This document shows, one piece after another, positions 6,001 to 36,835 of a stretch of DNA of 64,000 bases (position 1 is the stretch's first letter; every line of letters starts with the position of its first letter). The DNA is taken from IMG/VR virus record IMGVR_UViG_3300045988_154140, positions 4,555 to 68,554 of that record; one strand, written 5' to 3'. A program made the position numbers and the translations under genes. Source of the stretch: a virus. The notes under the pieces were generated by a model. That model was not told the DNA's origin. It made no database searches and saw nothing but the letters and a program-made list of their open reading frames with translations.

Positions 6001-9000
6001 TCCGCTGCAAACTCTGAATATTCGTCTGCTTTCTGGAGACGAGCGTGTGGTTTTTGCCCTGCGGCTTCTTCGGTGCGGATTATCTCCTTAATGATAGCGG
6101 CTTCATTCGGTGCAAGTAGAATTTTGCCTTGTTCGTAGGCATTCCAAGCCCCTATATAGCCGCTATACATTTTTACCGCTAATTCTATCTGTCCCGTTTC
6201 GGCTTTGGTGCTTCCGTATCGTATCTTGCCTATCTTCCATTCGGTAGCGTGGCTATCAGCATGCTTACTCGCTCCCGTCTTATACTTCTCGGGTGCGGGT
6301 GTTGCCTCCCACTTCGTACCTTTGATGACCTCTTCCGTCTTTTGAGGGCGCGTGTCCTTTGCGGCTTTAGCGGCTTTCTTGTATGCGGCTTCCACCGCTT
6401 TATCGGCTTCCTCGTATTCGGCGTTCGCCTTCTCACGCAACTCCTTCAGTACGGGGTCGGCCTTCATTGCCTCACGCTCTTTCTGCCCTTTTTCGGATGT
6501 TGTCTCCGCAGACAAAGTGGCTTGCGTTGGGTAGTGCTCAAAGAGGTAGTCCTGTATCTTCTCCTCCCATTTCTGCTCCACGTCACGCGCATGGTCATTC
6601 GCTTTTATGAAGTCTGGATTGTTCTCTACGAGGTGGCTTTCTATCTCTTCTTTCTGCCCCTTTTCTATAGGCAGTATGGAAGAATTATTAAACACAACAA
6701 CCTCACCTCCATCAATCATATTATGTTCTACAGACCAAGCATTCATATAGTTAATGATGCCATCATATCCCTTACTCTTTAACAAGTTAGAGAACTGAAC
6801 GGCTTCACTCTCGTTAAAGCCTGGATTACCAAGCATGTAGAATGGTTTGGATAGCTTTACATGTGCTTCAAATACCTGTCCATTATAGCCGTATTCTTCT
6901 GCAACGTCCTTGTTTGGAGTAAAGTACACACCACTACCTGCGAAATCCGCACTTTCACCATCGGCGCGTTTGTGTCCTGCTTCAAGTTCTGACACACTGA
7001 TAGATTTATCTAATGTACCATGGTAAAGAGTAATTGGGTTACCTGCATTATCGGCAACGACACCTTCATCTGTCAAGTTTCTATGTTCCTGACTAATAGG
7101 TGTACATCCTCTCTCTCTCAATAGAGTTTGAATTTCCGAAGTGGTATCTTCATCGGCAGGTGCGTTGATTTCCACAACGTCCTTCTTCACTGACGAGTAC
7201 TCACCAAAAGGCTTAGTCTTACGCGTGCTTGACTCAATCCACTTCTCGAAGTCTTCGAGGTTCACAGCGGACACATCAATTCTGCGGCCATTCTCCCAGC
7301 CCTGCTCGTAATTGGCAAGGTAGTCGCTCTTAGCCTCGTCAGCATCATTGAAGCCAAGCATAACCTTGTGCTCGTCAAAACTACCGTCAGGGTTGTACTG
7401 GTCAACGACGAACACCTTGCGTCCGTCCCAACCGTCAATATCATTGGAGAGGAACACGTCAATGTGGTCGCCGTCAACACCCACTGTACCACGAATGTAG
7501 CCGTAAGTGTTGTTCATCTTGCTTTCCCACTGCTTGCCGTCAGCATCAGTGCCCCTACGCACGCTGCCCTGCGGCTGCTCAATGGTGATGTCGAACGTAC
7601 CAACTTGTACATGCCCCTTCTTATAGTTGCCAGCTTCCTTCTGCGCCTCTGTCGGTTCGGTATTCACTTCGGCTGAGGCCGCTTCAATCTGGTTACCAAC
7701 ACTTTTTTCGTCATTTCCTTGCTCAGTTGAAGCCTTCTCTTTACCTTTGCCCTCAGAAGAGGTCGTTGGAGTTTCAGCGTTAATCGTTTCCTCACCGCCT
7801 TGTTGGGGATTCTGAGGCTTTGAAACATCTTCTGCGGTAGAAGATTGTGTCGGTTCGCTCGGCTCGTAGTCTTCTTGATTAGAGTTATTGGTTTGTGGCG
7901 CATCCGTGCCCTCTGTAGCGAGGTCGGACTTATTCCCTTGCGAAGAGTACAAGCCATCTGCCACGTCCGAGGCAGTCGAAACGTCATCGGCGCGTTTCCA
8001 AACCAATTTACCATTAAGAAGGAGGTCCAATATCTTGGACTTCCTTTTTTCTTGATTTGAAATCACGACCTCACGACCATCCTTGCGAACTGTTACAGAT
8101 GTAAAATAATAGTATCGTGAGCCATCAGCCTTGTGGAATGTTTTTACAAATACATAAGAGCTGCCACGTTCGGTAATATCTCCTTCTTTAGCCTCGCTCT
8201 TATCTTCGACTATAAAGTCAGGATTTTCAAGCGTAGGTTTAAGCATACCGAGTTTGCCATTACGTCCTTGCCGCATTAGCTTTGCAAACTGGTTCTCGCC
8301 CATCTTGACATCGCCAACTGGAGTTGGGATCTGCGTACCCTCATCAAATAGGGCATCCCAATTCTCTATTGTCAACTCAATTTGGGGAGCGACTTCTGCT
8401 CGCTCCTCCATCTGAGCAATGAGCGTAATAGCCTCTTCTCTGTTCAGTGTGCCTTCGCCTGCAATTTCTTCTTGGCTGCTTCCACTTCCTGTCGCACTTT
8501 GCGCTCCTCCAGCATTCTCTTGTGCAGCCTCTGGTTTACCAGCGCCTTCATCGCCAGCATCTTCTTCTGCTCTGGTGTCTGCGCGCTCTTCACCTCCTCG
8601 GGTGTCATCAGTCCGTTCGCCAGGTTGTACTTGATGGCTTCCACCATCGCTCTGCTCTTCTCCTGCGGAGTCATTTCCTTCTGTTCCATTGCTCTGCTGT
8701 TTAGCTTGTTCTTCTCTTCTGCGTAAGTCCTCCTCTATCTCGTCTGCGTATAGCTTGGTGAACTCTTGCTCGTCAAAGTTACTATATCTTCTCAACATCT
8801 CGGGCATCTCCTGCTCGGTATATGCGATATAGTCCTCATAAGACATGCCGTAGCGCTCGTTATAGTACGCATCGCGCTGCGCGTTGTACTGCTCCACAAA
8901 CTCCTGCTCTTGGTCAGTCTTATCTCGTCCCGACTTGAGGAAGTCTATAATGGCATCCCTTGCGGCAGCACTGTCACCGCCGAAGAAGCGGCCACCGTTC

Positions 9001-12000
9001 TCAGTGTTGTCAAGGTCAACCAACTTTTCGGACAGGCGTTCTATGCTGTCTCCCTCCTTCGCGATACGTCCTGCCCACTGCTTCTGCTCCAGCGTTCCGC
9101 CTCCAGTCTCTTTTCTGAAGGACTCAGGTGCTATCTTGGCACTTGCCATGAAGTCGGCGATGAACTCCTGCTGTGTGGGTATGCCGTTCTCGGCCTTTCG
9201 CTGTGCTCGGTAGGCCGTGCGTGCGTTATCATCGTTCAGTTCGCCCTCCCAGCCTTGCGCGTCTGCGGGTGTGGTTATTCTCTCCACTTCGGCTTTTACA
9301 TCGTTCCAGTACTGAGCCTTGTGGCGGGCATCTTCCAGCTCGTCTTCCCACTTCTTCTTGCTGGCAAGGTACTTGGCCTTGTCAGTGCCTACCTTGGGCT
9401 TCCGCTTCTCCAGCTTCTTCACGTTCTTGTCGGCTTCCGCTATCTGTGCCTCTATGAACTCGCCCACCTCCTTGTCGTCAAGGGTACCGTCATACAGGTC
9501 TTCCACGGTGGCCTGCACAGGAGCCTTGTCGTACTGGGGTGCTCCGTCCTTATCCAGCGGTATCTTTGGAGTGGCCTTGCTCTCCACAGCGGGAGCGGCC
9601 TCACCCTCCACAACAGGAGCGGCTTCACCCTCCACTACAGCGGAAGACCCGCCAGTTGGCCCCTCCTCGTCTGGTGCGTCCTTGCTATCCACGTAGTCAT
9701 GCAGGAGTTGTTTCGTCTTGGCATCCCACTCAGACTCATCCACGAGGTCTATCCACTCATGGATTGTCTCGGCATCGTTCTCGTCACGCACCCAGCCGTC
9801 AACCATTGCGCGTGCGCTTCTTCCTTCCTCGGTAGCGTCCAACTGCGCGGCCACCTCGCTACGGGTAGGCACTGCTGTATCGGCAGGCGCGTCCTCCTCT
9901 GTAGCGGGAGTGCCCTCTATGACCACAGAAGAACCGTCAGTCGGTGTCTCCTCTGTTGCACCGCCCTCCGTAGTCTCCTCCACCGCGCTGCGCTCTGCAT
10001 CGCGCTGCGCTGCGTCTTCCTGCTCATACACGTAGTCCTGGGAAGACAGAAGCTCGTCAGCGGTGGCCTTGAAGGGTGTGCCGCTTATGGCTTCCTCCTC
10101 GCCTGCCTCGTTCATGCGTGTGGGCAGGAGATAGAAGTTACCCTCCTCATCCTCCTTCACGATGAGGAAGCGCTGTGTCTCGTTATCCTCGTCATCGCTC
10201 TTGCGCATGCTGATGCTGACCGTCTCACCCACGGCGGGCTGCACGGTCTTGTTATGGTGGTTGAGGTTCCAGCGTACTTCATCCTTCGCCTGCTCCCACA
10301 GCTGCTTGCGTCTGGCTTCTGTCTCCTCGCTGGCGTTGACGGCTGTCAGTTCTCCCGCCTCCTCACGCGGTATCATGCGCAGAGCGCCTGTCCCCATATC
10401 ACGCACCACCAGCGTATTGCCTTCGTCAGACAGAGAAGAGGGTACGACATATTCGTTCTCTCCAAGGTTAGAGCCGCGCCATGCGTTGCCCTCCTCGTCC
10501 GACATGAGGTTTAGCGTGTTGCCGTACTTGTCGGCTTCCTCGTCCACGCGGTCATGCGCCCCTGCCATGATACCGCTCAGTCGGACGCTGGACAGATACA
10601 CATCCGTAGCCGCCTTCTTCTGCTCCCAGTTCAGTGTCTTCAGTATCTCCTGGAACTGCGGCAAGTCCATATCCCGCACGGCCATCACGAAGTCCTTGCC
10701 CAGCATTTCGGTAGCGGTTGCCGCTGCATTGTCAAACTCTACAGCGGCATTGTGGCGCTCGTCAACGGCCATCTCATGCCCCGCGTCAAACGCGCTCTTA
10801 TAGCCACGCTGCACACGGTTTGCACTTATCTCCCCAGACATATCGCTTGTGTTTACGCTCTGGTAGGCCACCAGCTTACCAGCGTAGTCCATCAGCGCGC
10901 GCGCCTGCTCGCTGTCCTTCAGCCCGCCATCCTTGAGGACGGACATATACACGTCGCATATATCCTTGATGCTCTCTGCCTCGCGCATGCGGGTCATAAG
11001 AGGTACAGCGGTCTCCTCGCCCAACGACTTGCGCAGGGCATCGGCAGAGGTGTTCAGCTGGCGCTTGACGGTGTAGGAGTTGTAGCGCTTCTGGCCTTGC
11101 TCGATAGCGGCCATGGGCATAATCATCGCGGCCACCGACAAGAATGTCTCCAAGTTTGTCTCGGCGTTGAACATGGAGCCTTTCCAGTCGTTCACGGCTT
11201 TGTTGTAGTCCTCCTCGCTCTTGTAGTCCTCGCGCTTTGGCTCGAAGACACCTCCCGTCAGGTTCATGTCGCCTGTGAAAACCGCGTTCTCCAGGTTGTT
11301 TATCACTTCCTCTGCATACTCCCCGAAGAGGCCGCTTATGTGCGCTTTCTTGCGGAACTCGGCCAGCAGGGAAGCCTTCTGCTTCGGTGAGGATGCAATG
11401 AACCGCTCCACCATGCTGCGTGCCAAGGGCATATCCTTTGCGGCAAGGTTGGCAAAGTTCTTTATCGGGGAGAAGTATTCACCCACCAGCTCGGACTGGT
11501 TCTCGAAGTAGGAAGCCAAGCCCCCCTTGAGGTACGACTTAGCCCCTGTCTCTCTGTCCTCCACGCGGTCATACACTATGCGCCCGCTGTCATCCACACG
11601 GCCTATGAACGTACCCGTCTGCCTCTCGTTTATAGAGGCCATGGTACGCGGCAGGCCAGTGGTGAGTGTTGTACCCAGTGCCTCCACTCCATCACCTATC
11701 ACGCGCCCTGCGGTGTTCATCGCGCGCACGCCCCACTTGCCATATTTGTTCACGGCGGCTACGGTGAGGGCGCGCTGCATGCTCTGCTCGGCGGCGGTCA
11801 TGGTAGGCGCGCCAGTCACGTTCTTCATCACCGTCTTACCCGCTGTCTTCATCGCGCCCTTCAGCACTTCCTTCACGCCTCCCTTGGCAGCGTTAGCCGC
11901 TACTTGCTTCTCCACAGCCGCACCCAGTCCGTTGAGCGGGTTGATGTAGATGCTAGCGGCAAAGCCCGCAGAGGCAGGCACGCTCTGTCCTACGCGGTAG

Positions 12001-13298
12001 GACATCGGCACGTGCTCACTGAAGTTAGCGTCCAGCGTGCTTGATACCGCCATCGCGTCCAGCACTCTCTGCTCGGTTGCGGTCAGATGCTCCTCGGGTG
12101 TCTTGCCTGCCTCCTCGGCCTTGCGGATTCGCTCTGACTTATCTACAAGCTCAGCCAGGTTACGGCTGTCTGCCCAGTCGTTGGCACCGAAGTCCCACGT
12201 GCGTATATCGCGGGTAGCGTCCCACGCGCCACGTGCCACGTTGAAGGCTGTGTTGTTGGAAAAGCCTTCGCGTGTAGCCTGCTTGATGGTGTTTTCTGTG
12301 TCCTCCAGTGCCTGCTCTGCGGCCTTGGCCTTGCCATACTCGGGGTCTGTCCACCTACGTATGTAAGAGGTCACGTTGGGGAACTGGCTCTCAGCGAACT
12401 CCATAAAGCCCGACTTCTCGCCTCGTCTCTCCTCTATGTCCTTCAACGCGTTGGCCACCTCCTCCTTTGCAGCCTCGAGTTGTTCTCTGCCGCCTCCCAG
12501 CTCGTACTCGGCCTTCACATCGCGCCCGCGGTACTTCTTTTCTGCTGCGTCCCGCTGCTGCTGTAGGCGGTCTATGGCCTGCATGATATAGCCTTTGCGT
12601 GTCTCACTCGTCTGGTCGGTACCCTTAATGCGGTCATACTGCTCCCGCATGACGGTCAGCTGCTTGTCTATGCCTGCCAACTCCTCCTGCCGCTTGCGGT
12701 CTATCTCCTCTTGCGCGCGAGCCAGCTTACGCGCTTGCTCCTGCTGATTGTCCAGAGCGGCCTGCTCACGCTCGGCAGAAGCCTGCGAGGTGTACTCGTT
12801 GCCGCTCTGTGTTATGTAGGTTCGCTCCTGCTTGCCTGTCTTGGCATTGAACGTAGGAGCGGTGGCCACGGTACGACCCGACTTGCCAAGTCCAAGCTCT
12901 ACCTTCGGCACGTTAAGCCCGAAGTTGGCCTTCTGCCACTCCTGCGCGTTCTCTGCCTGGTGCAGCACATCGCGCCCGCGTGCTACCGCCAGAGCGTTGT
13001 TCTTAGCCGCTCTTGCGTAGTCATCCGCGTTGGGCTGTGCCGCTCCACCCTGCTCTTCGGCTGGATCCTCCTGCTTGGCTGGCTTCACGGCATGCAAGCC
13101 AAGGTTGGCAGCAAACTCCTCGTAGGTATTGCTCTCTACGGCGTTGTCCTGCTTCAGCGCAGTAAAGAGCGCGAGCCTGTTCTTGTAGCCTTCCTCACCA
13201 GGCGCAAGCATCTTAGCTCGGAAATTCTCTCTACCGCTTGTTACCGCGCCATCACGTTCCAGCGCATCGTATAGTATATCTAACTTATCTTGTGCCAT
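1..13298 (-). CDS. Giant multidomain polyvalent-type protein; N-terminus complete, C-terminus outside the window (at least 4432 codons)
   Basis: ATG at 13298-13296, 2 nt after the upstream stop. My spot translations at 13298, 7475, 7028, 4046, 3227, 1817 and 23 all fall in the same frame (coordinate mod 3 = 2). It is missing from the ORF track only because its stop lies off-window. The plus-strand ORFs here look like antisense shadows. Confidence 0.85.
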   Translation of the reverse strand, partial: MAQDKLDILYDALERDGAVTSGRENFRAKMLAPGEEGYKNRLALFTALKQDNAVESNTYEEFAANLGLHAVKPAKQEDPAEEQGGAAQPNADDYARAAKNNALAVARGRDVLHQAENAQEWQKANFGLNVPKVELGLGKSGRTVATAPTFNAKTGKQERTYITQSGNEYTSQASAEREQAALDNQQEQARKLARAQEEIDRKRQEELAGIDKQLTVMREQYDRIKGTDQTSETRKGYIMQAIDRLQQQRDAAEKKYRGRDVKAEYELGGGREQLEAAKEEVANALKDIEERRGEKSGFMEFAESQFPNVTSYIRRWTDPEYGKAKAAEQALEDTENTIKQATREGFSNNTAFNVARGAWDATRDIRTWDFGANDWADSRNLAELVDKSERIRKAEEAGKTPEEHLTATEQRVLDAMAVSSTLDANFSEHVPMSYRVGQSVPASAGFAASIYINPLNGLGAAVEKQVAANAAKGGVKEVLKGAMKTAGKTVMKNVTGAPTMTAAEQSMQRALTVAAVNKYGKWGVRAMNTAGRVIGDGVEALGTTLTTGLPRTMASINERQTGTFIGRVDDSGRIVYDRVEDRETGAKSYLKGGLASYFENQSELVGEYFSPIKNFANLAAKDMPLARSMVERFIASSPKQKASLLAEFRKKAHISGLFGEYAEEVINNLENAVFTGDMNLTGGVFEPKREDYKSEEDYNKAVNDWKGSMFNAETNLETFLSVAAMIMPMAAIEQGQKRYNSYTVKRQLNTSADALRKSLGEETAVPLMTRMREAESIKDICDVYMSVLKDGGLKDSEQARALMDYAGKLVAYQSVNTSDMSGEISANRVQRGYKSAFDAGHEMAVDERHNAAVEFDNAAATATEMLGKDFVMAVRDMDLPQFQEILKTLNWEQKKAATDVYLSSVRLSGIMAGAHDRVDEEADKYGNTLNLMSDEEGNAWRGSNLGENEYVVPSSLSDEGNTLVVRDMGTGALRMIPREEAGELTAVNASEETEARRKQLWEQAKDEVRWNLNHHNKTVQPAVGETVSISMRKSDDEDNETQRFLIVKEDEEGNFYLLPTRMNEAGEEEAISGTPFKATADELLSSQDYVYEQEDAAQRDAERSAVEETTEGGATEETPTDGSSVVIEGTPATEEDAPADTAVPTRSEVAAQLDATEEGRSARAMVDGWVRDENDAETIHEWIDLVDESEWDAKTKQLLHDYVDSKDAPDEEGPTGGSSAVVEGEAAPVVEGEAAPAVESKATPKIPLDKDGAPQYDKAPVQATVEDLYDGTLDDKEVGEFIEAQIAEADKNVKKLEKRKPKVGTDKAKYLASKKKWEDELEDARHKAQYWNDVKAEVERITTPADAQGWEGELNDDNARTAYRAQRKAENGIPTQQEFIADFMASAKIAPESFRKETGGGTLEQKQWAGRIAKEGDSIERLSEKLVDLDNTENGGRFFGGDSAAARDAIIDFLKSGRDKTDQEQEFVEQYNAQRDAYYNERYGMSYEDYIAYTEQEMPEMLRRYSNFDEQEFTKLYADEIEEDLRRREEQAKQQSNGTEGNDSAGEEQSDGGSHQVQPGERTDDTRGGEERADTRAEEDAGDEGAGKPEAAQENAGGAQSATGSGSSQEEIAGEGTLNREEAITLIAQMEERAEVAPQIELTIENWDALFDEGTQIPTPVGDVKMGENQFAKLMRQGRNGKLGMLKPTLENPDFIVEDKSEAKEGDITERGSSYVFVKTFHKADGSRYYYFTSVTVRKDGREVVISNQEKRKSKILDLLLNGKLVWKRADDVSTASDVADGLYSSQGNKSDLATEGTDAPQTNNSNQEDYEPSEPTQSSTAEDVSKPQNPQQGGEETINAETPTTSSEGKGKEKASTEQGNDEKSVGNQIEAASAEVNTEPTEAQKEAGNYKKGHVQVGTFDITIEQPQGSVRRGTDADGKQWESKMNNTYGYIRGTVGVDGDHIDVFLSNDIDGWDGRKVFVVDQYNPDGSFDEHKVMLGFNDADEAKSDYLANYEQGWENGRRIDVSAVNLEDFEKWIESSTRKTKPFGEYSSVKKDVVEINAPADEDTTSEIQTLLRERGCTPISQEHRNLTDEGVVADNAGNPITLYHGTLDKSISVSELEAGHKRADGESADFAGSGVYFTPNKDVAEEYGYNGQVFEAHVKLSKPFYMLGNPGFNESEAVQFSNLLKSKGYDGIINYMNAWSVEHNMIDGGEVVVFNNSSILPIEKGQKEEIESHLVENNPDFIKANDHARDVEQKWEEKIQDYLFEHYPTQATLSAETTSEKGQKEREAMKADPVLKELREKANAEYEEADKAVEAAYKKAAKAAKDTRPQKTEEVIKGTKWEATPAPEKYKTGASKHADSHATEWKIGKIRYGSTKAETGQIELAVKMYSGYIGAWNAYEQGKILLAPNEAAIIKEIIRTEEAAGQKPHARLQKADEYSEFAAEYGLDGMWLSRYAEGMRERNSAAAAMALHDLKAIYLREHIAEKKALMERDRVSGLLANKRLFEPVEQAIKAKYGDVDVLIEERRKQAEIERGMMEAARKKAEEEEAKRQQHLEELSLLTEDEIDERYADALAKGDEATAREMLDEAARRKGYGDVESDYQGVGAWGAPSKPDYETDEARRNAVGEDSPDLNVEDMAAGYSNQPEDIFKHPDKYSQGLPTSKESGKAIQTAIDDIRNGKKDVRIKVYRAVPTTVKEGKLRNGDWVTPSRRYAELHGDNRLEGKYRIIEDEVPAGDLWWDSNDVNEWGYDNGKSYRYKNVKNNRKQNDLVTRDDKGNIIPPSKRFNSRKADERYQRGKDAAPVTKEEAILRDAVIDRMRENGMDVITNEEEGQRVMDEANGKVRTQMGDAPESFAERQKQAVENRGIVMPGLNDMSVKVLDGIPRHSYTGNIAEATKQAIQKAKEKYAPDGKAKVLHYDNNGTEFDYTISGNAIEICLSPKHQAKSGNKGAHLALAEHLDEVINHSVEVEEHPDYIKGKDGKRGARINPIALMHRFYGAVVIDGVPCRVMTLMREEKSAATDNGIHSYEVQKIEVLDNELPSTPNGVGSQNQLRLDSSYPLAKLLKGVEKSYDKGKKLLEESEKSSAGIRENRVWHGSGAEFEAFDHSHIGEGQGSQSFGWGTYVTSSKAIGRTYAEDANNKLFRSKFGNYYLQKLREALNNGRSFESEKQRLLDSHSEMYNKAKEKGSGYNDFIHDYEKLGELKENDLPSRHLYTVEITDDNGKNYLDWDSRVGARVLNKVNRQLEQQGKRPINPELDKRYKFLDGNDLYRALSIRMPNDDATFNDDKAASEFLYSLGFVGIRYKAGRNFGGAKEGDTNYVIFNEKDAKITDHVRFFRTADGEAYGFTVDGKIYIDPKIANSETPVHEYAHLWASALRQSNAKEWANVVGLMKDTAVWEEVKKHYPELKTDDEIADEVLATYSGRRGAERLRKEMEEATKNGSIFDKAEAMSAMQKIRQALDTFWKSVADFLHIHYTTAEEVADRVMKDLLDGVDPRMMNDGESLERVNEKFNEQLAKFTEDNSDKINFNLGSPSAKLLSAGVADKPIRLHGSKVAKKMKKHGFSIEELHDLPKAVANPIAVFDNLGKEGNRSVLTELKTANGNFLVAIDLGKGTEADFDIVSSVFGKKGHSVAAWINKGYMRFVDKKKALNYLHLSAPIAEASDNAELSSAAKVIQDFENPKVSDEKVSEDDLYRVVDDEEKQQAYKGAAYMDDAAIEALNSEYRGEWLKREGEGQATDEEVSLANDPVSKMIGKSRYSAGQQVEYAENMRERMTTHAQELAEKLHLSNVEIVADGSGFTGKRQKAKGFYNKTTGKITVVIGNHTSMADVEKTILHEAVAHHGLRQLFGEHFDQFLDNVYESCDYKIRQKIDALMEEKGYDQRTATEEYLASLAEDMNYETTDPTFWTAIKEAFLDMLHTLGFDYAGPVLTDNELRYILWRSYKNLEEPGSFRSILGTAEDLKMQETLGVGQYETEGKESAAAEDLFREDDISRALNNDSEGAGWSRETMQRAWDDVMSKASFLAKEGYFDYLASVDEFQKLVERATGEKVSDMQNAYKAMLQLSSRNANEMKLFDSAFARPLQRAVYRLIGAVKDFKKGKGLELSWYLISKHGIERNRDMAIRAAMKEKANESYAEQIHEATAELKEERTQLLAELTRIAAGEESTLGTEAAIKARVKQIEAEIDSIKKHPNKHGLKTEAEFYEDELDNWYRTASFIKEYAEENGWTWRETQEELTRRAADFGADVTEDYSGLSALVEEKEDFTEAAYRRVENYENTHYTDDLWEAIRAMSGYSLEKQRSSGLTTKKYVDDQLRRYDFFVPLRGWADPTAEEMYDYLDGQRSELGNPVKTAKGRKSEADNPLGGLLSVAYRSIASGNKNMALQHFYNLVSAHNTNGLAVIDSMWVENRGTEDAPDWVLATPELTDPMTGGREMSAEEVQ
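9592..9639 (-). repeat. Tandem 24-bp in-frame repeat x2 inside the giant ORF (VVEGEAAP / AVEGEAAP)
   Basis: 9592-9615 and 9616-9639 are 22/24 identical; they lie in an acidic linker. Confidence 0.8.
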
Positions 13299-13300
13299 AT

Positions 13301-14449
13301 TTATAAACCAAGTGCTCTTGTATGTGACATATTATTGTTCGGCTTCTTCCCTGTCTTGGCCTTCTTCTTGGCCTCTTCTGCGGCTTTGCGTTCCTCCTTC
13401 TTCTTCCGCGTAAGTTCTGCAAGCTTCTGCTCTCCCGATTTACCGCGCTCTATCTTGGTAGTGCTCTTGCCGCCGAACTCGTTAACGTGTTCGGTCTCTC
13501 TTGTGCGGCTATCGTCCCCCATCTCAAGCCCCATTTGGTGTATCGCCTCATTCGGGGTGATATACAATCTCTCTAATTCGCCAGTAAGGGAATTGGCGAC
13601 GTCGTAAGGAACCCTGTATGCCCCACTACCACCGCTGCCAACGTGTCTTGCGCGTTGGTTATTCAGCCCTATCTGCGAGTCCATGAGCTGAAGCTTCTTC
13701 TGAGCAAGCGCCACGATGTTATCTGCTTCCTGCTCCAGCTTCTTTCTTGTGGCTTCGTCCTTTGCGGAAGCGGCCTGCATCGTCTTAATCTTGGCATCGG
13801 TAAGCATGTCTTGTATCTCCCAACGCTTATCCTCGGCGTTTACCTTACGCACCAAGTCCGCTCTCTTCAGACCAAGCTCCTCTCCCTTCTGCTGGAGCGC
13901 ACGGCCTTGCAGCAGGTTGTTAAGGTAAGCCTGCCTGCTCTTCTCCACCTGTGTGCGGAATGCCTGCACGTCCTTGTTAGCGTCTGGCAGGTCGGGTAGC
14001 TTCTGGCTTGGAGCCACACCGCCTGTAAAGGCAAGGTTGCTGAACGCGCTGAGCACGTTGCCCAGCGCGCCCACGCTCTGAGCGGCAGCAGCCCCGCGCT
14101 CTCTGCGCTTCTGCTCCTCCTCGGTCATCGGTGCAGAGGTGTACTGCTTGACCAACTCGGAGAAGTTGTCGTAGTCACTGACTGGCGGTATATCCAGGGA
14201 TGGCTTTTCCTCCTCCACAACGGGCGCTTCCGCTCTCTGCTCTTTCGGTGTCCACGGGGTCTGCGGTGTATAGTCTGCCGTTTTTCTCTGCAAGGCAGCT
14301 GGCACCTCATCCTTCACGGCAGGAGCATGGGCGGTCACAGCAGGGGCAGGAGTCGGGGTAGTAGCTACCGCTGGCTTAGGTGGGTAAGTCACACTCTTCT
14401 TCTCGTCATCGTCGAGAAAAGAATACATGTCTGATTCTGTTCTCTTCAT
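13301..14449 (-). CDS. Hypothetical 382-aa protein, Pro/Ala-rich N-part and charged coiled-coil-like C-part
   Basis: ORF track; ATG at 14449; its stop is 2 nt before the giant-ORF ATG. Confidence 0.65.
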   Translation of the reverse strand: MKRTESDMYSFLDDDEKKSVTYPPKPAVATTPTPAPAVTAHAPAVKDEVPAALQRKTADYTPQTPWTPKEQRAEAPVVEEEKPSLDIPPVSDYDNFSELVKQYTSAPMTEEEQKRRERGAAAAQSVGALGNVLSAFSNLAFTGGVAPSQKLPDLPDANKDVQAFRTQVEKSRQAYLNNLLQGRALQQKGEELGLKRADLVRKVNAEDKRWEIQDMLTDAKIKTMQAASAKDEATRKKLEQEADNIVALAQKKLQLMDSQIGLNNQRARHVGSGGSGAYRVPYDVANSLTGELERLYITPNEAIHQMGLEMGDDSRTRETEHVNEFGGKSTTKIERGKSGEQKLAELTRKKKEERKAAEEAKKKAKTGKKPNNNMSHTRALGL

Positions 14450-17489: not shown

Positions 17490-18722
17490 CTATAATTCCT
17501 CCCCAAAGTCGAATTTCATCTGTTGGAACTTCTCGGCATACCATCGTTTGTATGATTTACCCGAAATCCACCAGTCATAGATATTCTCCGCTATTTCGTT
17601 TTCTTGCTCCTCTGTCAAGCGGTCAGAAGAGGAGCTGGATGAAAACCCCGATTGTCTCTCTCCACATTTCGTGCCATTCGATCGTTTGGTATCGCTCTCC
17701 AAATGTCCTTTTGGTAGGAATTGAGGCGTTTTGCCCCCTGTCCAATGCCCTGGGTCGGGATGCTTGATGTAGCCCGCATCTGTTTTTCTGAGCAATCCTC
17801 TTACGTTGCTTGAAGGAACCTTGTCTTCGCGGATATTCCACCAGACATATTCCTCTTTGAACCCAGTATTCCTACGGATGGCCTTAATAGCCCTTATCCA
17901 ACCTCGCTTGACGTGCGGATAGCGAGCGTTTTCGAGCATTTTCTGCTTGTATGAACTCATTGGGCAACTTATACAGCCTATGCGGTGCCAGCCTTCATCG
18001 TAGAGGGAGCAGTGCGGTACCTTCACCACATCGTTGAGAAATTCCCACACGTCTTGCTCCGTCCAGTAAATGATGGGTGATACAAGTAGAGTCTCTTTGC
18101 CGTGGATGCAGCCTAATGTCTGTTCCTCGTCAGCATTGGTGATGTTCACTCCCTCCTTCTTCGACTTTCGCCTCAGGCGTTTAGCCTTCTGTTCCTGTCG
18201 GTACTTCTCCAGCTCGTCGAGGTCGCCACTAAACTTTCGGTTGCTCGTCTCAACCTCGTTGCGCTTGGCTCGGCGCGAACTCTCTGCCTTGCGGATGCCG
18301 ATGAGCGTTACCTTTCCAGCGCCTGCCAGCTCCTTGTATTCGGCGCAACACCATCGCACACGCTTTGTGGGTAATATCCGTTTTTCGATGGCAATCTGAA
18401 AGATGCTCTTCTTCGGCTTTATGAGTTCAACTTCTGGATAGTTCCTCTTTACGAAGCGTATCACTTCGGGAGGGTCAACGCTCGTGAGATTCATGTGGCC
18501 TTGAAATTTCACTCCTGCTAACTGCGCCATGTGGTAGAGAGCCTGCGAGTCCTTGCCGCCGCTAAACGCAAGGTAATAGCCTTGCTCGGCATCATAGTTG
18601 AGCGCAATCTTCTCTGCCTTTTGCAGCAACTCAAACGAGTGAAGCATCTTCTTTCGCAGTCGAGCCGAAGCACGGGCTAATGCCTCGTCAAGTAGAATTT
18701 TTGTATTCAAGTCTTTTAACAT
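17490..18722 (-). CDS. PAPS-reductase / PP-loop ATP-pyrophosphatase family protein (DndC/IbrA-like)
   Basis: PP-loop AFSGGKDSQ, a WCC..YK segment, and a C-terminal CISCP cysteine cluster. Confidence 0.85.
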   Translation of the reverse strand: MLKDLNTKILLDEALARASARLRKKMLHSFELLQKAEKIALNYDAEQGYYLAFSGGKDSQALYHMAQLAGVKFQGHMNLTSVDPPEVIRFVKRNYPEVELIKPKKSIFQIAIEKRILPTKRVRWCCAEYKELAGAGKVTLIGIRKAESSRRAKRNEVETSNRKFSGDLDELEKYRQEQKAKRLRRKSKKEGVNITNADEEQTLGCIHGKETLLVSPIIYWTEQDVWEFLNDVVKVPHCSLYDEGWHRIGCISCPMSSYKQKMLENARYPHVKRGWIRAIKAIRRNTGFKEEYVWWNIREDKVPSSNVRGLLRKTDAGYIKHPDPGHWTGGKTPQFLPKGHLESDTKRSNGTKCGERQSGFSSSSSSDRLTEEQENEIAENIYDWWISGKSYKRWYAEKFQQMKFDFGEEL

Positions 18723-19917
18723 TCTATAATTATATAAGGCGTAGTATTACATAAGCCGTCTGCTTCGGTGAAGCCGTTTTTACCCGTAAACCTTGTAAGG
18801 GTATTGGCTATCTCCTTGCGTGGTCTCTTGATCACGTTTCCATGGCTGTCTCTCACCCAGCCGATGTAATACTTGTCAGTCATACTCTCATCCTTCTTCA
18901 TCTTCATATTCTCCTTGAACATCTTATAGAAACCACGCCAATACTCTACATCCATTTTCTTAGGGTTCTCCTTGAACTTTTCGTAGAGATGGGCGATGGC
19001 AGGGCGATGATAGCTCAGCTCCTTTTCGTTCCATTCTACGCCCTTGTCCCATCCATCGTGGCGTTCCATGAATATCTGAAGCACGGTCTTTATGAACATT
19101 GCGGCCTCGTGTGTCGTCGGCAGGTCGAACTGCATGAAGAGGGCGTTGTCGGAATCGTTTGCCTTGAAGAACTTGCTCACGGCATCGTCCTTGAGGAAGT
19201 ACCGCTCTTCTGCCTCGTCCAGCAGCACATCCTCCAACCGCTTGTCCAAGGCGATAGTCTCTGGAAACTGGAAGTCAAAGGCCACATCGCTCCGCATGGA
19301 CAGACAGAATACCCTGTCTCTGTTCTGTGGCACGCCGTAGTTCTTTGCGTTGAGCCGCTGCCACCTCGATACGTAGCCAAGCCGCCACAACTTATTGAGC
19401 CACGCCTGGAAGTCGGGAAGGAAGTTCTTGTTTACCAGCGCCGCCACGTTCTCCCACAAGAGGAACTTAGGGCGCAAAACTCCCACCGCGTCTGCTACAT
19501 GCCACAGCAGGGACGAGCGCGTACCGCTGCCCTCCTTCATGCCCATCTGCTTGCCAGCGTTGCTGTGGTTTGGCATTTCGGGCAGCTCTTCGTCTGGGAA
19601 GAGGCTCATCTGTCCGCTTGGTTCGCGGTGTTTAGGGTACCACAGCTGCTCGTAGATATAGGCAAGCACATCAACGACAATGCTGTTTCCTGCTTGTCTG
19701 TACTGCTGTGCTGCTGTGCTGCTGACACCGCCATTTCGTCCTTCTTGCCCTTTGGTTTGAAGCCTGCTATACGCTTCTCTGCCTGTGCGTTCGTGCTCTG
19801 CATCGTGTGTATCACATCATCGCGCACGCCCATCAGCCTGAAACACTCAAAGGGTGTAAGCTTGCGCATCGCGTAGGACTTAATGCTTCGGTCCCTGTAG
19901 TTCAGTTTCAATATCAT
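18716..19917 (-). pseudogene. C5 cytosine-methyltransferase-like gene, motif order permuted (IX-X before IV-VIII-TRD), frameshifted, no motif I, PCQ replaced by PNH
   Basis: Frame A (19917-19606) has RKLTPFECFRLMG. Frame B (open from further upstream; read from about 19750 down to 18716) has QAGNSIVV, then PNHSNAGKQ..GSGTRSSLLW, ENV, QNRDR and a long TRD. Confidence 0.7.
19701..19724 (-). repeat. 8-bp tandem repeat x3 (TACTGCTG TGCTGCTG TGCTGCTG) at the frameshift point of the MTase-like gene
   Basis: Read directly. Deleting one 8-bp unit joins ..DEMAVSAAQQ to YRQAGNSIVV.. in frame. Confidence 0.9.
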
Positions 19918-20263
19918 CGTGTAGTTGCTTTAGCACCCTCCTTTGATTACATGTTCCGTGCATCTTTATTAGTTGCCACAGAAATTCCTCTGTTTTGAAA
20001 CGTACTCGGTATTTTATCTCCCGATAGGAAATTATGTTTTTATCTGGAAAACCAGGTTTAATGTGGTCCCATCTTTCGAGGACGTTTAGGTAGGAGAAAT
20101 ACCCCTTATCTATCTCAACGGTTAGTTCTGTGTAAGCATCCGAGTCCTCTAACGAATCTGGCCAATCTTCCAAATCTACTTCCATAAAGAAGTATTTATC
20201 TCGGTTCGAGTCTGTTTTGAAACCAAGTTCTAATAGGGTCTTTCTTATCTTCTCTTTATCCAT
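19880..20263 (-). CDS. Hypothetical 127-aa protein
   Basis: ORF track; its 3' end overlaps the first 38 nt of the MTase-like fragment. Confidence 0.5.
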   Translation of the reverse strand: MDKEKIRKTLLELGFKTDSNRDKYFFMEVDLEDWPDSLEDSDAYTELTVEIDKGYFSYLNVLERWDHIKPGFPDKNIISYREIKYRVRFKTEEFLWQLIKMHGTCNQRRVLKQLHDDIETELQGPKH

Positions 20264-20264
20264 A

Positions 20265-21071
20265 TCACTTACCCGTTAGCATCTTCTTTACTCTCTGCCA
20301 CAAAGAGGGCTTGCGGTCTCTCTTAATCTGCTCTACGTACTTTACCACTCTTTCATATTCTCTCCCGCTCACATTGCTGTCCTTGTAGGCTTTAGCAATT
20401 AGCTCCTTGCCCGTGCCATAGAAGCATCCAACGCGCCACATGTCATTGCTGCGTGTCCATGTAAAGTACCTACCCGATGTCCACCAATTCTTAAAGACAA
20501 TATAGTCGTAGTTGGATTCTATCACCGCGTCACCGCCAATTTTGGCCCAACCACTTATGCCCAAGGTCTGAGGATTTCTTTGTCTTATAACAGCAAAATC
20601 GTAAATCGCAGCGCTACCACATATACATACCCAGCCACGAACAGAAGCAGAATCCTCAACAGTAGCTTTTTCGGCAATAACCGCACTATTGCTTACGCAA
20701 GCCATGCCAGAAACGCGCGCACGTTGGCTAACAATTGCGCCATTATAAACCTTAGCCTCGTCAGCTACCCAAGCGTGGTCTCTAACAATTGCGCCATTAT
20801 AAACCTTAGCCTCGTCAGCTACCCAAGCGTGGTCGCGTAGGTTTTCATAGCTTTCAACAAAACCGCCCAGAGTGCCTTTCGTTATATTCGGGAAATCCTC
20901 TGTACATCTTATGCGGTGCAGCGTATGCCCGTCAAACTCAATGGTCTCATCGGTCAACTCATAATGCCTATTTTCTTTCATAATTTTATCTTTCATAATT
21001 TTATTATAACCCCGAATTGTGTCACATATTCTATTGATAAGTCCATACAGGCTTGCTCTCTCGTTCTCCAT
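20265..21071 (-). CDS. YdcK-like left-handed beta-helix (hexapeptide-repeat) protein, paralogue 1
   Basis: HRIRCTEDFPNITKGTLGGFVE followed by imperfect hexapeptide repeats; the C-terminal WTRSNDMW domain is shared with the neighbour. Confidence 0.7.
   Translation of the reverse strand: MENERASLYGLINRICDTIRGYNKIMKDKIMKENRHYELTDETIEFDGHTLHRIRCTEDFPNITKGTLGGFVESYENLRDHAWVADEAKVYNGAIVRDHAWVADEAKVYNGAIVSQRARVSGMACVSNSAVIAEKATVEDSASVRGWVCICGSAAIYDFAVIRQRNPQTLGISGWAKIGGDAVIESNYDYIVFKNWWTSGRYFTWTRSNDMWRVGCFYGTGKELIAKAYKDSNVSGREYERVVKYVEQIKRDRKPSLWQRVKKMLTGK
20728..20835 (-). repeat. In-frame 54-bp tandem duplication (18 aa, RDHAWVADEAKVYNGAIV x2)
   Basis: 20728-20781 and 20782-20835 are identical at 53/54 positions. 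Confidence 0.9.
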
Positions 21072-22039
21072 CAGCCAAGCTCCTTAATACTTTCTACATA
21101 CTTCACGAGCAGCTCTCGGTTCTTGCCGTGTAGCTCTCCCTTCTCGTAGCCCTTCTTGATGAACTCCTCTGCTGGGCAGGGGCTGTTTATGCTAAGACCG
21201 TCGCAATGCCACATGTCGTTGCTGCGTGTCCAAACAATCTCGTACCCCTCATGGAGCCAATCGGTGAACACCACATAGTCCCTGCTACTTATCACCTTCG
21301 CATCCCCGCATATACGGAAGGTTCCCTTTATAGGGATAAACACCTTTTTAGGCCCTGGAAGCCCCTCACATCTGACCTCTGCTTCGTCTGTAACGTAAAG
21401 AGCGCCCATAGAATATGTCATGCCACCTACAACGGCATACCCGTCCACCATTGTATTGCCCATAAGCCAGGCGTGGTCACATACCAAAGCACAGCCGCCC
21501 ACATGAGCGCACTCCCCTAAATTGGCATGGTCACAGACACGTGCGTCCATGCCTACACAGGCATATTCTGTCACCCTTGCATGGCCTTCTATCCTTGCAT
21601 TGTCTGTTATTTCCGCGTTGTCTTTAACAACAGCGTGGTCTGTGACAACGCAGTTACCCTTGACCTCGGTGCAGTCGCCAACACCTGCGTTACCGCTTAC
21701 CTCTGCATCCATGACGAAAGCATGGTCGCCTACATAAGCGTTACCGCTTATCGTGGCCGTTCCGCAGACCTTTGCAAAGCCAAATACCATCGCAGTCTCC
21801 TTGATGATTGCGGATCCTTTTACCTTTGCGTACTCACATACAACTGCTTCATCCTCCACCCAGGCCTGTTCACTTAGGTTCTTGTAGTCTTCTATCCAAC
21901 CACCGACATCCCCTGCCTTGTAATCGCGGAAGTCCTTTGTGCATCTGATACGGTGTACTACGCGGTTATAAAACTTCTTGGTTTCGCCCGTAAACTCGTA
22001 ATATCTCTCTTCTTCCATATCTCTATTCTGTTTAACCAT
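21071..22039 (-). CDS. YdcK-like left-handed beta-helix protein, paralogue 2 (true start may be ATG 22018)
   Basis: HRIRCTKDFRDYKAGDVGGWIE plus hexapeptide repeats plus WTRSNDMW. The first 7 codons match the leader of the neighbouring paralogue pair. Confidence 0.7.
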   Translation of the reverse strand: MVKQNRDMEEERYYEFTGETKKFYNRVVHRIRCTKDFRDYKAGDVGGWIEDYKNLSEQAWVEDEAVVCEYAKVKGSAIIKETAMVFGFAKVCGTATISGNAYVGDHAFVMDAEVSGNAGVGDCTEVKGNCVVTDHAVVKDNAEITDNARIEGHARVTEYACVGMDARVCDHANLGECAHVGGCALVCDHAWLMGNTMVDGYAVVGGMTYSMGALYVTDEAEVRCEGLPGPKKVFIPIKGTFRICGDAKVISSRDYVVFTDWLHEGYEIVWTRSNDMWHCDGLSINSPCPAEEFIKKGYEKGELHGKNRELLVKYVESIKELG

Positions 22040-22620
22040 TATAGGAACACCTTGTTGTAAAGGTCGGCGAATTGCTTGCCAAATTGTTCAGCTCGCTCCT
22101 GAGTCTTAAAGCAAAGCCGAGAACCTATATTTGCAAACGCACTCGCAGGCGTGTAAACCGTACTCGAAAAGACGAACCTCTCAGTAGCCTTCTCATAGGT
22201 GAACCAAGGGAACCATTTTTCTTGCCCGCGATTCGAGAAATCAGGTACAAATCCGTCCATAATATTCCACGCCTGCGCGATTGTGAACAACTTGTTCAGC
22301 GCATCCAAAGCTTCAAAGTGCTTCGGATTGAGGCTCCCCAAAAAATCACATGGGCGTATTTCCTTATGCAGTAAGTCTCTTGCTTGTAGAAACGCTATGG
22401 CGCTCACAAAGTCGGGAATACACTCGCACGCGTCATCCTCTTCTACTTTTTCAACCATGTAATCTACGAGAAGTCCTACGCTGCAATCATCCTTCCCGTC
22501 TTCAACACTCTCGGTTGCGTAGCGCAAGATAGTCAGCATTGCCTCCTTGCGGGTATCGTGGGCAGCAGGCATTACATTCTGCTCGCTTCCATCCGCATTT
22601 TTGATGACATACTTTTTCAT
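22039..22620 (-). CDS. Hypothetical 193-aa protein, paralogue A of a tandem pair
   Basis: Shares MxKYxIKxxDGSEQxVMPA.. and GFVPDFSN..KW.PW....CFKT..RA.QF..QF.DLYNKVFL with the next gene. Confidence 0.7.
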   Translation of the reverse strand: MKKYVIKNADGSEQNVMPAAHDTRKEAMLTILRYATESVEDGKDDCSVGLLVDYMVEKVEEDDACECIPDFVSAIAFLQARDLLHKEIRPCDFLGSLNPKHFEALDALNKLFTIAQAWNIMDGFVPDFSNRGQEKWFPWFTYEKATERFVFSSTVYTPASAFANIGSRLCFKTQERAEQFGKQFADLYNKVFL

Positions 22621-22639
22621 ATCTATTCTTGTTTAGTTG

Positions 22640-23173
22640 TTATAGGAACACCTTGTTGTAAAGGTCGATGAACTGTTCACAAAATTGTTTCGCGCGCTTT
22701 GATGTCTTAAAGCAAATCCGAGGACTGAGATACGCACGTGCATTCGCAGTTATGCTAAACGTACCCGCATACACGAACCCCGCGGCATCCTGGTCATACC
22801 TAATCCAAGGAGACCACTTGGCTTGTTTCGGATTCGAGAAATCGGGGACGAATCCATCTTCCTTATTCCAGGCTTCGGCCATAGCAACCAACTTATTCAA
22901 GGTAAGCTGCGCTTCAATGCGCTTTGGATTGATGTCTTCTACAAGTCTTGCGACACCCTCAAACGGAAGGTTGCTTTCGGAAATTTTTTCCTTCTCATCC
23001 ACCTCCTCGATAGCGTAGTTGAAAGGGTCTTCCATGCTGTCATCATCCATATCTTCGGCTACTCCTGTAAGGTAGTGCGAGAGAGTCAGCAGCGCATCCT
23101 TGAGCGTGTTGTGAACGGCAGGCATCACATGCTGCTCACTGCCATCTTTCATCTTGATAATGTACTTACTCAT
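22640..23173 (-). CDS. Hypothetical 177-aa protein, paralogue B of a tandem pair
   Basis: See paralogue A. The last 28 nt of both genes are identical (22039-22066 vs 22640-22667). Confidence 0.7.
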   Translation of the reverse strand: MSKYIIKMKDGSEQHVMPAVHNTLKDALLTLSHYLTGVAEDMDDDSMEDPFNYAIEEVDEKEKISESNLPFEGVARLVEDINPKRIEAQLTLNKLVAMAEAWNKEDGFVPDFSNPKQAKWSPWIRYDQDAAGFVYAGTFSITANARAYLSPRICFKTSKRAKQFCEQFIDLYNKVFL

Positions 23174-34180: not shown

Positions 34181-34258
34181 TATATTTTTTTCTTATCTTT
34201 TACTATCTTTTATCGTCTTTTCTTATCTTTTATCAACTTTTACTATCTTCTGTATCTC
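34181..34258 (-). repeat. Array A: about seven 10-bp-phased TATCTTTT-type repeats (AAAAGATA on the sense strand of the early operon)
   Basis: TATCTTTT occurs at 34194, 34204 and 34224, with variants at 34214, 34234, 34244 and 34253. Confidence 0.8.
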
Positions 34259-34423: not shown

Positions 34424-34603
34424 TTAACTATTCGTACCCGATACGTACAACTCCGAGTTCGTTCCTTCATCTGTCTCAGGAGGATCCTGCTCTTCGTGTA
34501 GTCGGTCACCATATTCATGCGGGAGATTCTGTCCAGCCTTTAGGCGGTCTCCCTCATATCTCCGCGAGATGTTTTGCTCCTCGTGTGGCCTGTTCTCCAT
34601 CAT
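34424..34603 (-). CDS. Small charged 59-aa ORF with internal repeat (MMENRPHEEQNISRRYEGDRLKAGQNLPHEYGDRLHEEQ..), below the ORF-track cutoff
   Basis: My own translation. It is a GC-rich island in AT-rich DNA with its own -7 box (34710-34717) and hairpin (34402-34421). Confidence 0.3.
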   Translation of the reverse strand: MMENRPHEEQNISRRYEGDRLKAGQNLPHEYGDRLHEEQDPPETDEGTNSELYVSGTNS

Positions 34604-34668
34604 ATCTTTTTCCTATCTTTTATTAACTTTTATCCGTTTTTATCATGTTTTACCATCTTTTTCCTTAA
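34601..34668 (-). repeat. Array B: six to seven 10-bp-phased TATCTTTT-type repeats abutting the small-ORF ATG
   Basis: catatctttt tcctatcttt tattaacttt tatccgtttt tatcatgttt taccatcttt. Confidence 0.8.
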
Positions 34669-36499: not shown

Positions 36500-36835
36500 G
36501 TGCGCAAAAAGCAAAACAATGCTCAAAACCGTGCAACAACGAAATTAGAATAATCACATAAAGAGTTATATAACAAAGAGTTACAAGGTGTTATGCACAC
36601 CTTTGTAGCGGGACTGTATGCCAAAAGCGGCAACAAACTTAAAAACTCACTGAGCAGCAGCACAATGCGCACACAACAGCATAAACCTCAATAAGATAAA
36701 GAATGAGAAAACATAATAAAAGATGAGAAAACATAATAAAAGATAGCAATAAATCCATGCGCTATTGCACGAAAATTGGGGTAAACCGTGCTCAAAACCG
36801 TGCATAAATACATGCTCATTTTCTTATACCTTGAT
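36500..36835 (+). other. Candidate attP / integrase control region
   Basis: 15-bp direct repeat GCTCAAAACCGTGCA at 36521 and 36790; AAAGAGTTA x2 at 36560 and 36575; hairpin AAGGTG-TTATG-CACCTT near 36585; A-tract array C. Confidence 0.35.
36690..36753 (+). repeat. Array C: exact 20-bp tandem repeat ATGAGAAAACATAATAAAAG x2 within phased A-tracts (same motif family as arrays A/B, sense to int)
   Basis: 36703-36722 and 36723-36742 are identical. Confidence 0.85.

Follow-up and report, generated by a model that had tools for sequence, protein, structure and literature searches.

The DNA analysed here, a stretch of 64,000 nucleotides (hereafter the window), is phage DNA, as evidenced by a P22-like portal, a family A DNA polymerase, a VapE-like primase-helicase, an exonuclease, and a giant polyvalent protein, and its source is an uncultured gut phage. 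By protein comparison, the nearest isolated phages were Bacteroides phages, with portals 31-36% identical, and a nucleotide search with the methyltransferase locus described below against 50,697 GenBank phages returned no match. A scan of bacterial genomes for the methyltransferase family recovered only one distant match (39% identity, in a Clostridium MAG), and one homologue of the mini-ORFs treated later was found in a Prevotella MAG. Outside the locus, a stop-free frame of more than 4,443 codons (3-13331, minus strand) runs past the window start and carries the Pfam domains MuF_C, ART-PolyVal, InPase, PBECR2, and LPD14; judged by these domains, it encodes the giant polyvalent protein, of a kind linked to phage counter-defence. 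In ORF 20265-21071 (minus strand), a perfect in-frame tandem duplication of 54 bp (18 codons) was detected at 20728-20834, and the hexapeptide-repeat matches of this ORF were weak and below threshold; next to it are ORFs 21071-22039 and 22039-22620, and a segment with 74% identity (approximately 22019-22254 and 22619-22855) is common to at least two adjacent genes, which suggests tandem paralogs. Furthermore, clusters of a 10-bp phased repeat (consensus approximately TATCTTTTAY), direct at 34186-34250 and 34600-34667 and inverted at 36690-36753, flank a small plus-strand gene block in a low-GC (43%) region where the strand bias flips, and this region may be an origin or regulatory region.

The locus of interest is a broken methyltransferase-like gene on the minus strand, with the following features in coding order:

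19606..19917, minus strand: 5' ORF fragment of 103 aa, with the N-terminus and motif IX in 69 in-frame residues, followed by 34 out-of-frame codons
19828..19866, minus strand: motif IX (RKLTPFECFRLMG)
19701..19724, coding strand minus: 8-bp tandem tract, CAGCAGCA CAGCAGCA CAGCAGTA
19673..19702, minus strand: motif X (YRQAGNSIVV), read in the same frame as the 3' ORF fragment
19682-19702, minus strand: the YRQAGNS of motif X
18716..19669, minus strand: 3' ORF fragment, 317 aa from a GTG at 19669 or 297 aa from an ATG at 19609 (the ENA call)
19562..19575, minus strand: junction of a 279-bp (93-codon) in-frame deletion, TGCCAAACCACAGC
19445-19453, minus strand: motif VI (ENV), in the 3' ORF fragment
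19313-19327, minus strand: motif VIII (QNRDR), in the 3' ORF fragment
18719..18883, minus strand: C-terminal 'type H' recognition module (MTDKYYIGW...NTTPYIIIEC), fused to the core

The 103-aa ORF (19917..19606) reads MILKLNYRDRSIKSYAMRKLTPFECFRLMG...KKDEMAVSAAQQ before the frame is lost, and the 3' fragment comprises motif X, a linker, the tail of motif IV (SNAGKQMG), motifs VI and VIII, a helical insert, and the C-terminal recognition module. The repaired translation matched Pfam PF00145 (C-5 cytosine DNA methylase) with E = 4.5e-35, in agreement with the preliminary description, which had called the gene methyltransferase-like; the match begins at profile position 74 and is accompanied by a second, smaller matched stretch. 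Among the motifs that define C5-methyltransferases, VI (ENV), VIII (QxRxR), IX, and X (GNS) are present in the window, motif I (the FxGxG-type AdoMet-binding loop) has been deleted, and the Pro-Cys of motif IV is missing, the window reading PNHSNAG without Cys where relatives have SSPCQDLSNAG. The sequence is homologous to the PF00145 family, yet on these motifs it would be no functional member of it. Immediately downstream lies a PAPS-reductase-like gene (PF01507; phrog_424; 17490-18722, minus strand), and because its ATG overlaps the methyltransferase stop, the window protein ends in ..IIIEC in place of the elsewhere invariant ..IIIEYD.

On the plus strand, the tract at 19701-19724 reads TACTGCTGTGCTGCTGTGCTGCTG, i.e., TACTGCTG TGCTGCTG TGCTGCTG, of which two units are perfect and the third (TACTGCTG on the plus strand, CAGCAGTA on the minus strand) is one base off. 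Tandem Repeats Finder reported it at 19698-19724 with period 8, 3.4 copies, and 94% matches, so that the three 8-bp copies noticed earlier were confirmed by both the sequence and the program. When at least three copies with at most one mismatch were required for periods of 5, 7, 8, 10, or 11, this was the sole instance in the 64 kb, and no comparable repeat stretch occurred in 100 dinucleotide-preserving shuffles of the window; the repeat thus exceeds chance expectation. Immediately upstream of motif X on the coding strand, its extra CAGCAGCA unit puts the frame off by +8 nt. Upstream of the tract the frame reads ..KKDEMAVSAAQQ and then continues out of frame (HSSTDKQ...) for 34 codons until the stop at 19606, and the frame with motif X (19702-19673) reads YRQAGNSIVVDVLAYIYEQL... 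and runs on to 18716, exactly the split between a motif-IX and a motif-X frame that had been described. In silico deletion of one 8-bp unit yielded a single 397-codon ORF containing ..AVSAAQQYRQAGNSIVV.., as predicted from the sequence alone, and intact relatives encode ..AVSAAQQYRQAGNS.., the same as the window after loss of one unit.

A search of 5.8 billion clustered proteins recovered thousands of homologues, the best of which were 479-491 aa long and covered only 71% of the query, including P0001 (485 aa, 85% identity) and P0003 (491 aa, 81%). Both present the motifs in the order IX (RKLTPFECFRLMG), X (QQYRQAGNS), linker, I (TTFSGYDS), IV (SSPCQDLSNAGKQMG), VI (QENV), and VIII (QNRDR), with a helical insert of approximately 100 aa 3' of motif VIII and then a C-terminal segment running to ..NTTPYIIIEYD. 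Comparison with solved structures aligned residues 170-344 of P0003 with residues 102-288 of M.MpeI, and residues 14-50 of P0003 with residues 332-368 of M.MpeI; since the alignment is split in two in this manner, the circular permutation was confirmed. By sequence and alignment, the intact relatives can therefore be classed as circularly permuted C5-methyltransferases, with motifs IX-X placed N-terminal to motifs I-VIII in one polypeptide, and the window retains this permuted order for its surviving motifs. An AlphaFold2 model of intact P0003 was unusable (mean pLDDT 38, pTM 0.29) because the 25-sequence alignment behind it was too shallow.

Comparison with these homologues uncovered a second lesion, which the preliminary description does not mention. 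The window protein passes directly from ..ELPEMPNH to SNAGKQMG at a point where P0001 and P0003 read ..ELPAMPDHS-DDEKVICTTFSGYDS....SSPCQDLS-NAGKQMG, and in DNA alignments the BLAST segments of L001, L021, L022, and L023 all break at one point, 19562-19575. At the junction, two imperfect direct repeats of 14-15 bp, TGCCAGACCACAGC and TGCCAAAACCTCAGC, are merged into the hybrid TGCCAAACCACAGC; they lie 279 bp apart in L001 and the intact relatives. The deletion took the last part of the linker, the AdoMet-binding motifs I-III, and the motif IV Pro-Cys. In an alignment of 25 intact homologues, 250 columns are invariant, and 71 of these are lost with the deletion, including F126-S127-G128 (motif I) and P204-C205-Q206 (motif IV). 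Motif I is the AdoMet-binding element of C5-methyltransferases and the cysteine of motif IV their catalytic nucleophile, and from this knowledge of the family a protein without both would be unable to methylate DNA. Thus, the preliminary statement that two copies of the repeat would restore the gene holds for the reading frame and fails for the enzyme: because motifs I-III and the motif IV Pro-Cys are deleted, the two-unit 'ON' state would still be a dead enzyme. Either lesion by itself would presumably abolish methyltransferase activity. A search of IMG/VR for the deletion junction gave no match and hence no genome with the deletion plus two units, and the in-frame 397-aa form of the deleted gene was not found among the 5.8 billion clustered proteins.

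To compare unit numbers, 17 related loci were taken from IMG/VR with an intact homologue as query and aligned across the tract region. The extra unit was absent in all related loci that retain this region (19/19), and the region was in frame in every aligned IMG/VR locus that has it; one locus, L012, lacks it. The closest locus, L001, reads GGCGGTGT CAGCAGCA CAGCAGTA C, which makes two units, and the window has one CAGCAGCA more; the remaining, more distant loci read TCTGCCTCACAGCAGTAC, with one recognisable unit. A pattern scan for two to five units returned two-unit copies only, namely L018 in IMG/VR, which is the same contig as L001, and the metagenome contigs L021-L023, all of which carry full-length genes. 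The two-unit form is therefore a mere AAQQY coding sequence (GCA GCA CAG CAG TAC) in one subclade, the third unit being confined to the lineage of the window; counting units in related genomes, a check proposed at the outset, hence gave at most two in every relative.

Within the lineage, the exact 103-aa frameshift product was found on four contigs and the 297-aa product on three. Three units together with the deletion junction were read on L019, a 68.5-kb ENA contig 100% identical to the window and presumably its own origin, and on L020, a contig of 1.1 kb that the same study obtained from another sample; the two contigs come from one study and pipeline, and their samples may be related. The source samples have the ENA assemblies ERZ28578322 (SAMEA4545294) and ERZ28577038 (SAMEA4545319). 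L020 lacks approximately 42 bp at window 20054-20095 (ORF 19880-20263, minus strand) and is otherwise essentially identical over its 1.1 kb. Because of this indel, at least two genotypes exist in the lineage, both with the methyltransferase lesions. The lineage is thus fixed, at contig level, for three units plus the deletion, and the occurrence of the same three units on contigs from two samples argues against both assembly error and rapid switching. The preliminary description had named a fixed three-unit state combined with other disabling lesions as the mark of a plain pseudogene, and this is essentially what the contigs contain.

Damage to the gene was also observed elsewhere in the family. 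In the close relative L012 (4001-5060; the same as L026), where the flanking genes are as in the window, the stretch from motif X to just before the motif IV Cys has been replaced by approximately 60 unrelated bases, and an additional 1-bp insertion is located near the 3' end of the methyltransferase gene. P0040 (400 aa) has a different internal deletion, and L010 has a 1-nt frameshift within motif IX (approximately 4035-4066). In L015, an ORF resembling an HNH homing endonuclease (..HVLVAEAFIPKGNPHFVQVNHKDGNKLNNSVSNLEW..; approximately 4352-4891) is inserted in the linker between motifs X and I, splitting the permuted methyltransferase precisely at the junction of its two halves. Since the lesions differ among the window lineage, L012, P0040, and possibly L010, they suggest that the methyltransferase may be dispensable or counter-selected in some hosts, e.g., those with methylation-dependent restriction. 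In the window lineage and in L012, and nowhere else, the PAPS-reductase-like gene adjoins the methyltransferase, which is broken in both, and its acquisition was considered as a cause of the decay; this was not supported, as the two are related and amount to a single case (n = 1), and homologues of the gene sit elsewhere in many related phages with intact methyltransferases.

Taken together, these results are best explained, with a probability of roughly 85%, by a recently pseudogenised, circularly permuted orphan phage C5-methyltransferase gene with two independent repeat-mediated lesions, in which the tract is no switch. The ancestral sequence GCA GCA CAG CAG TAC (AAQQY) would have held two imperfect 8-bp units, CAGCAGCA CAGCAGTA, from which a slipped-strand event presumably made three, so that the frame is lost between motifs IX and X and translation would end 34 codons on; a 279-bp in-frame deletion between the imperfect 14-15-bp direct repeats has removed motifs I-III and the catalytic Pro-Cys. 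The tract would then be a mutational scar and no regulatory device, because the lineage is fixed at three units and reversion to two restores no enzyme. Relative to L001, L021, L022, and L023, with which it has flanking genes in common, the window carries both the +8 frameshift and the 279-bp deletion. Both lesions were observed directly, as were their lack in relatives and their occurrence in independent assemblies; we infer slippage as the mechanism, loss of function as the outcome, and a recent date for these events. A fresh inactivating slippage was among the options raised at the outset, and it fits an extra unit that occurs in no relative and is the same in assemblies from two samples.

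The other two options raised there fared less well. A phase-variable ON/OFF switch, in which the tract would grow and shrink by frequent slippage and thereby toggle methyltransferase expression, could draw on a unit length that is no multiple of three, on the position of the tract inside an ORF, on the exact restoration of the frame by loss of one unit, and on the well-documented repeat-driven switching of methyltransferases in bacteria (PMC7383803). However, the tract has just three units, one of them imperfect, against a cut-off of at least five units for repeats of at least 4 nt (PhasomeIt; PMC6321876); it is not conserved, relatives having two or one recognisable unit without variation; both lineage contigs that were read, from two samples, have three units, without length polymorphism at contig level; and the 'ON' frame would yield a 397-aa protein minus 93 residues, devoid of motifs I-III and the catalytic Cys, of which no in-frame version occurs in the protein collection. 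The length, the length variation (at contig level), the intact product at one length, and the conservation as a tract that characterise phase-variable simple sequence repeats are thus all lacking, and with relatives free of the extra unit, a short imperfect tract, and a deleted catalytic core, the probability of a switch is close to negligible. A sequencing or assembly artefact, with a true genome of two units, is very improbable: mis-assembly of short tandem repeats is possible and every contig of the lineage comes from one project, but the three-unit sequence is identical in separate assemblies from two samples, one of which is a different genotype marked by an indel close by, a tract of 24 bp with an 8-bp insertion fits well within read length, and the gene would be dead regardless owing to the deletion.

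The remnant might instead have kept a function: the 297/317-aa C-terminal product (motifs VI and VIII plus the recognition module), or both fragments, could bind DNA or regulate without catalysis, and the frameshift would be tolerated or even selected. Consistent with this, the deletion is in-frame, both ORFs are reported by gene callers, and pairwise dN/dS against relatives was below 1 (0.09-0.46), although most of the underlying divergence is older than the lesions. Substitutions at invariant columns numbered three in the window (Q245W, P311T, and Y490C) compared with zero to eight in intact members (leave-one-out), and this absence of a clear excess of damaging substitutions fits recent inactivation and also a retained non-catalytic role. 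On the other side, the codon changes specific to the window in the 200 codons past the junction comprised five non-synonymous and three synonymous ones, including Q245W, which adjoins ENV, and Y490C, in the invariant C-terminal EY, and L012 has lost another part of the gene and carries a 1-bp frameshift at its 3' end. Pairwise dN/dS, the lineage-specific changes, and the invariant-column count yielded no clear-cut sign of relaxed constraint apart from the two lesions. Because L012 is broken in another part of the gene, the pattern resembles decay and no new conserved architecture, and a functional remnant is improbable. Under the preferred pseudogene reading, the phage probably does not methylate its own cytosines by this enzyme, and window 18716-19917 should be annotated as a pseudogene of a C5-methyltransferase, with a frameshift and an internal deletion. 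A frameshift by slippage in a gene that is already crippled is an ordinary, known kind of event. More generally, a tidy non-triplet repeat in a methyltransferase gene is insufficient to call a phase switch, and comparison with intact homologues can reveal a second, less visible lesion.

What is more novel was found in the related loci and not in the tract. Most homologues were 'core' forms of 433-442 aa that end at ..YKMFKENMEKK, and the last approximately 55 residues of the fused form are encoded in relatives 0.3-2.2 kb downstream of the core. After the 441-aa core, arrays of small ORFs (hereafter mini-ORFs) were found in the following related loci:

L007, 5316-7738: mini-ORF array
L010, 5496-6895: mini-ORF array
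L017, 1743-2780: mini-ORF array
L006, 5503-6844: mini-ORF array
L002, 5584-6197: mini-ORF array

These arrays hold up to seven mini-ORFs of 45-61 aa, each with its own ATG, in eight sequence types (A-H). The mini-ORFs end in [IV]-x-x-E-[YF]-[DE]-stop, as the fused enzyme does at its C-terminus, and adjacent ones often overlap by 8 nt, the next ATG lying inside ..GAGTATGAnTAA... Within-type pN/pS was 0.07-0.31, indicating that the mini-ORFs are genuine coding sequences. Many contain a segment resembling the 'sPTLTa' of target-recognition domains (e.g., IALCIAGGG, TTNTLTSVG, and YSTALSARY); IALCIAGGG compares with GIAITLSAYGGG in M.HhaI. Type C occurs as a free-standing ORF of 33-83 aa in 121 protein clusters, never fused and always annotated as hypothetical. 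Type H stands alone in many loci; P0001, P0003, and the window (18719-18883) have it fused to the core. A chimera of type C and the core N-terminus aligned across the join, weakly, with a canonical Dcm-type enzyme (3lx6 residues 313-353). An intron between the core and the last small ORF was considered and rejected: Rfam gave nothing at the gathering threshold in six loci and nothing at E <= 1 in two intervening regions, and the intervening DNA turned out to encode mini-ORFs. Searches of the eight mini-ORF types against Pfam and PHROGs matched no family, and no description of such arrays was found in the literature, which does not by itself prove novelty.

It is plausible, at odds that reach even at best, that the mini-ORFs are separately encoded target-recognition modules for one permuted catalytic core. 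More tentatively, the 8-bp scar could be a symptom of an unusually plastic locus, in which a permuted core and up to seven separately translated mini-proteins, their ORFs linked by the conserved stop/start overlap, would form a modular, multispecific methyltransferase. Recombination between repeats would repeatedly rebuild, fuse, or discard it when hosts change, and the window copy would be a fused one that was recently discarded. This interpretation concerns the gene family in the related loci and does not rescue a phase switch at the tract. The family architecture of the relatives, in which recognition mini-genes accompany a permuted core, may merit separate study.

Several known systems bear comparison. 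M.AquI and M.EcoHK31I are two-subunit C5-methyltransferases in which the variable region or motif IX lies on a separate polypeptide and the enzyme works (PMC3404938); they have one fixed small subunit with conserved motifs, whereas the relatives of the window have up to seven alternative ORFs of 45-61 aa without a conserved catalytic motif, and this precedent bears on the split forms of the relatives and not on the window copy. The multispecific methyltransferases of the Bacillus phages SPR, phi3T, rho11s, and H2 (Wilke et al. 1988; Lange et al. 1991; both cited in PMC8936443), a further precedent, carry their recognition domains in one polypeptide. Like them, the present family comprises phage C5-methyltransferases without a partner endonuclease, presumably shielding phage DNA from host restriction, and its relatives have several alternative recognition modules in tandem; unlike them, the modules of the relatives are separate mini-ORFs, and in the window copy, as read here inactive, a single module is fused to the core.

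Naturally permuted C5-methyltransferases include M.BssHII, M.Alw26I, M2.Eco31I, M.Esp3I, and M2.BsaI (PMC5944983). The window gene is circularly permuted, like the M.BssHII type, but it is a deleted, frameshifted relic. The phage family has just approximately 17 residues before motif IX and a C-terminal recognition region behind the helical insert of approximately 100 aa; its topology is 'J-like', whereas the majority in that study are 'H'.

Finally, the phasevarions of Haemophilus, Neisseria, Helicobacter, and Campylobacter (Type III mod, Type I hsd) likewise have a non-triplet tandem repeat within a methyltransferase ORF, whose copy number sets the frame. Known phase-variable tracts typically have at least five units for repeats of 4-5 nt (PMC6321876), and those of phasevarions are long, conserved among strains, and length-polymorphic, with an ON state that is an intact enzyme. 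In contrast, the window tract has three units, is absent or shorter in relatives, shows no length variation within the lineage (contigs), and has an ON frame without a catalytic core.
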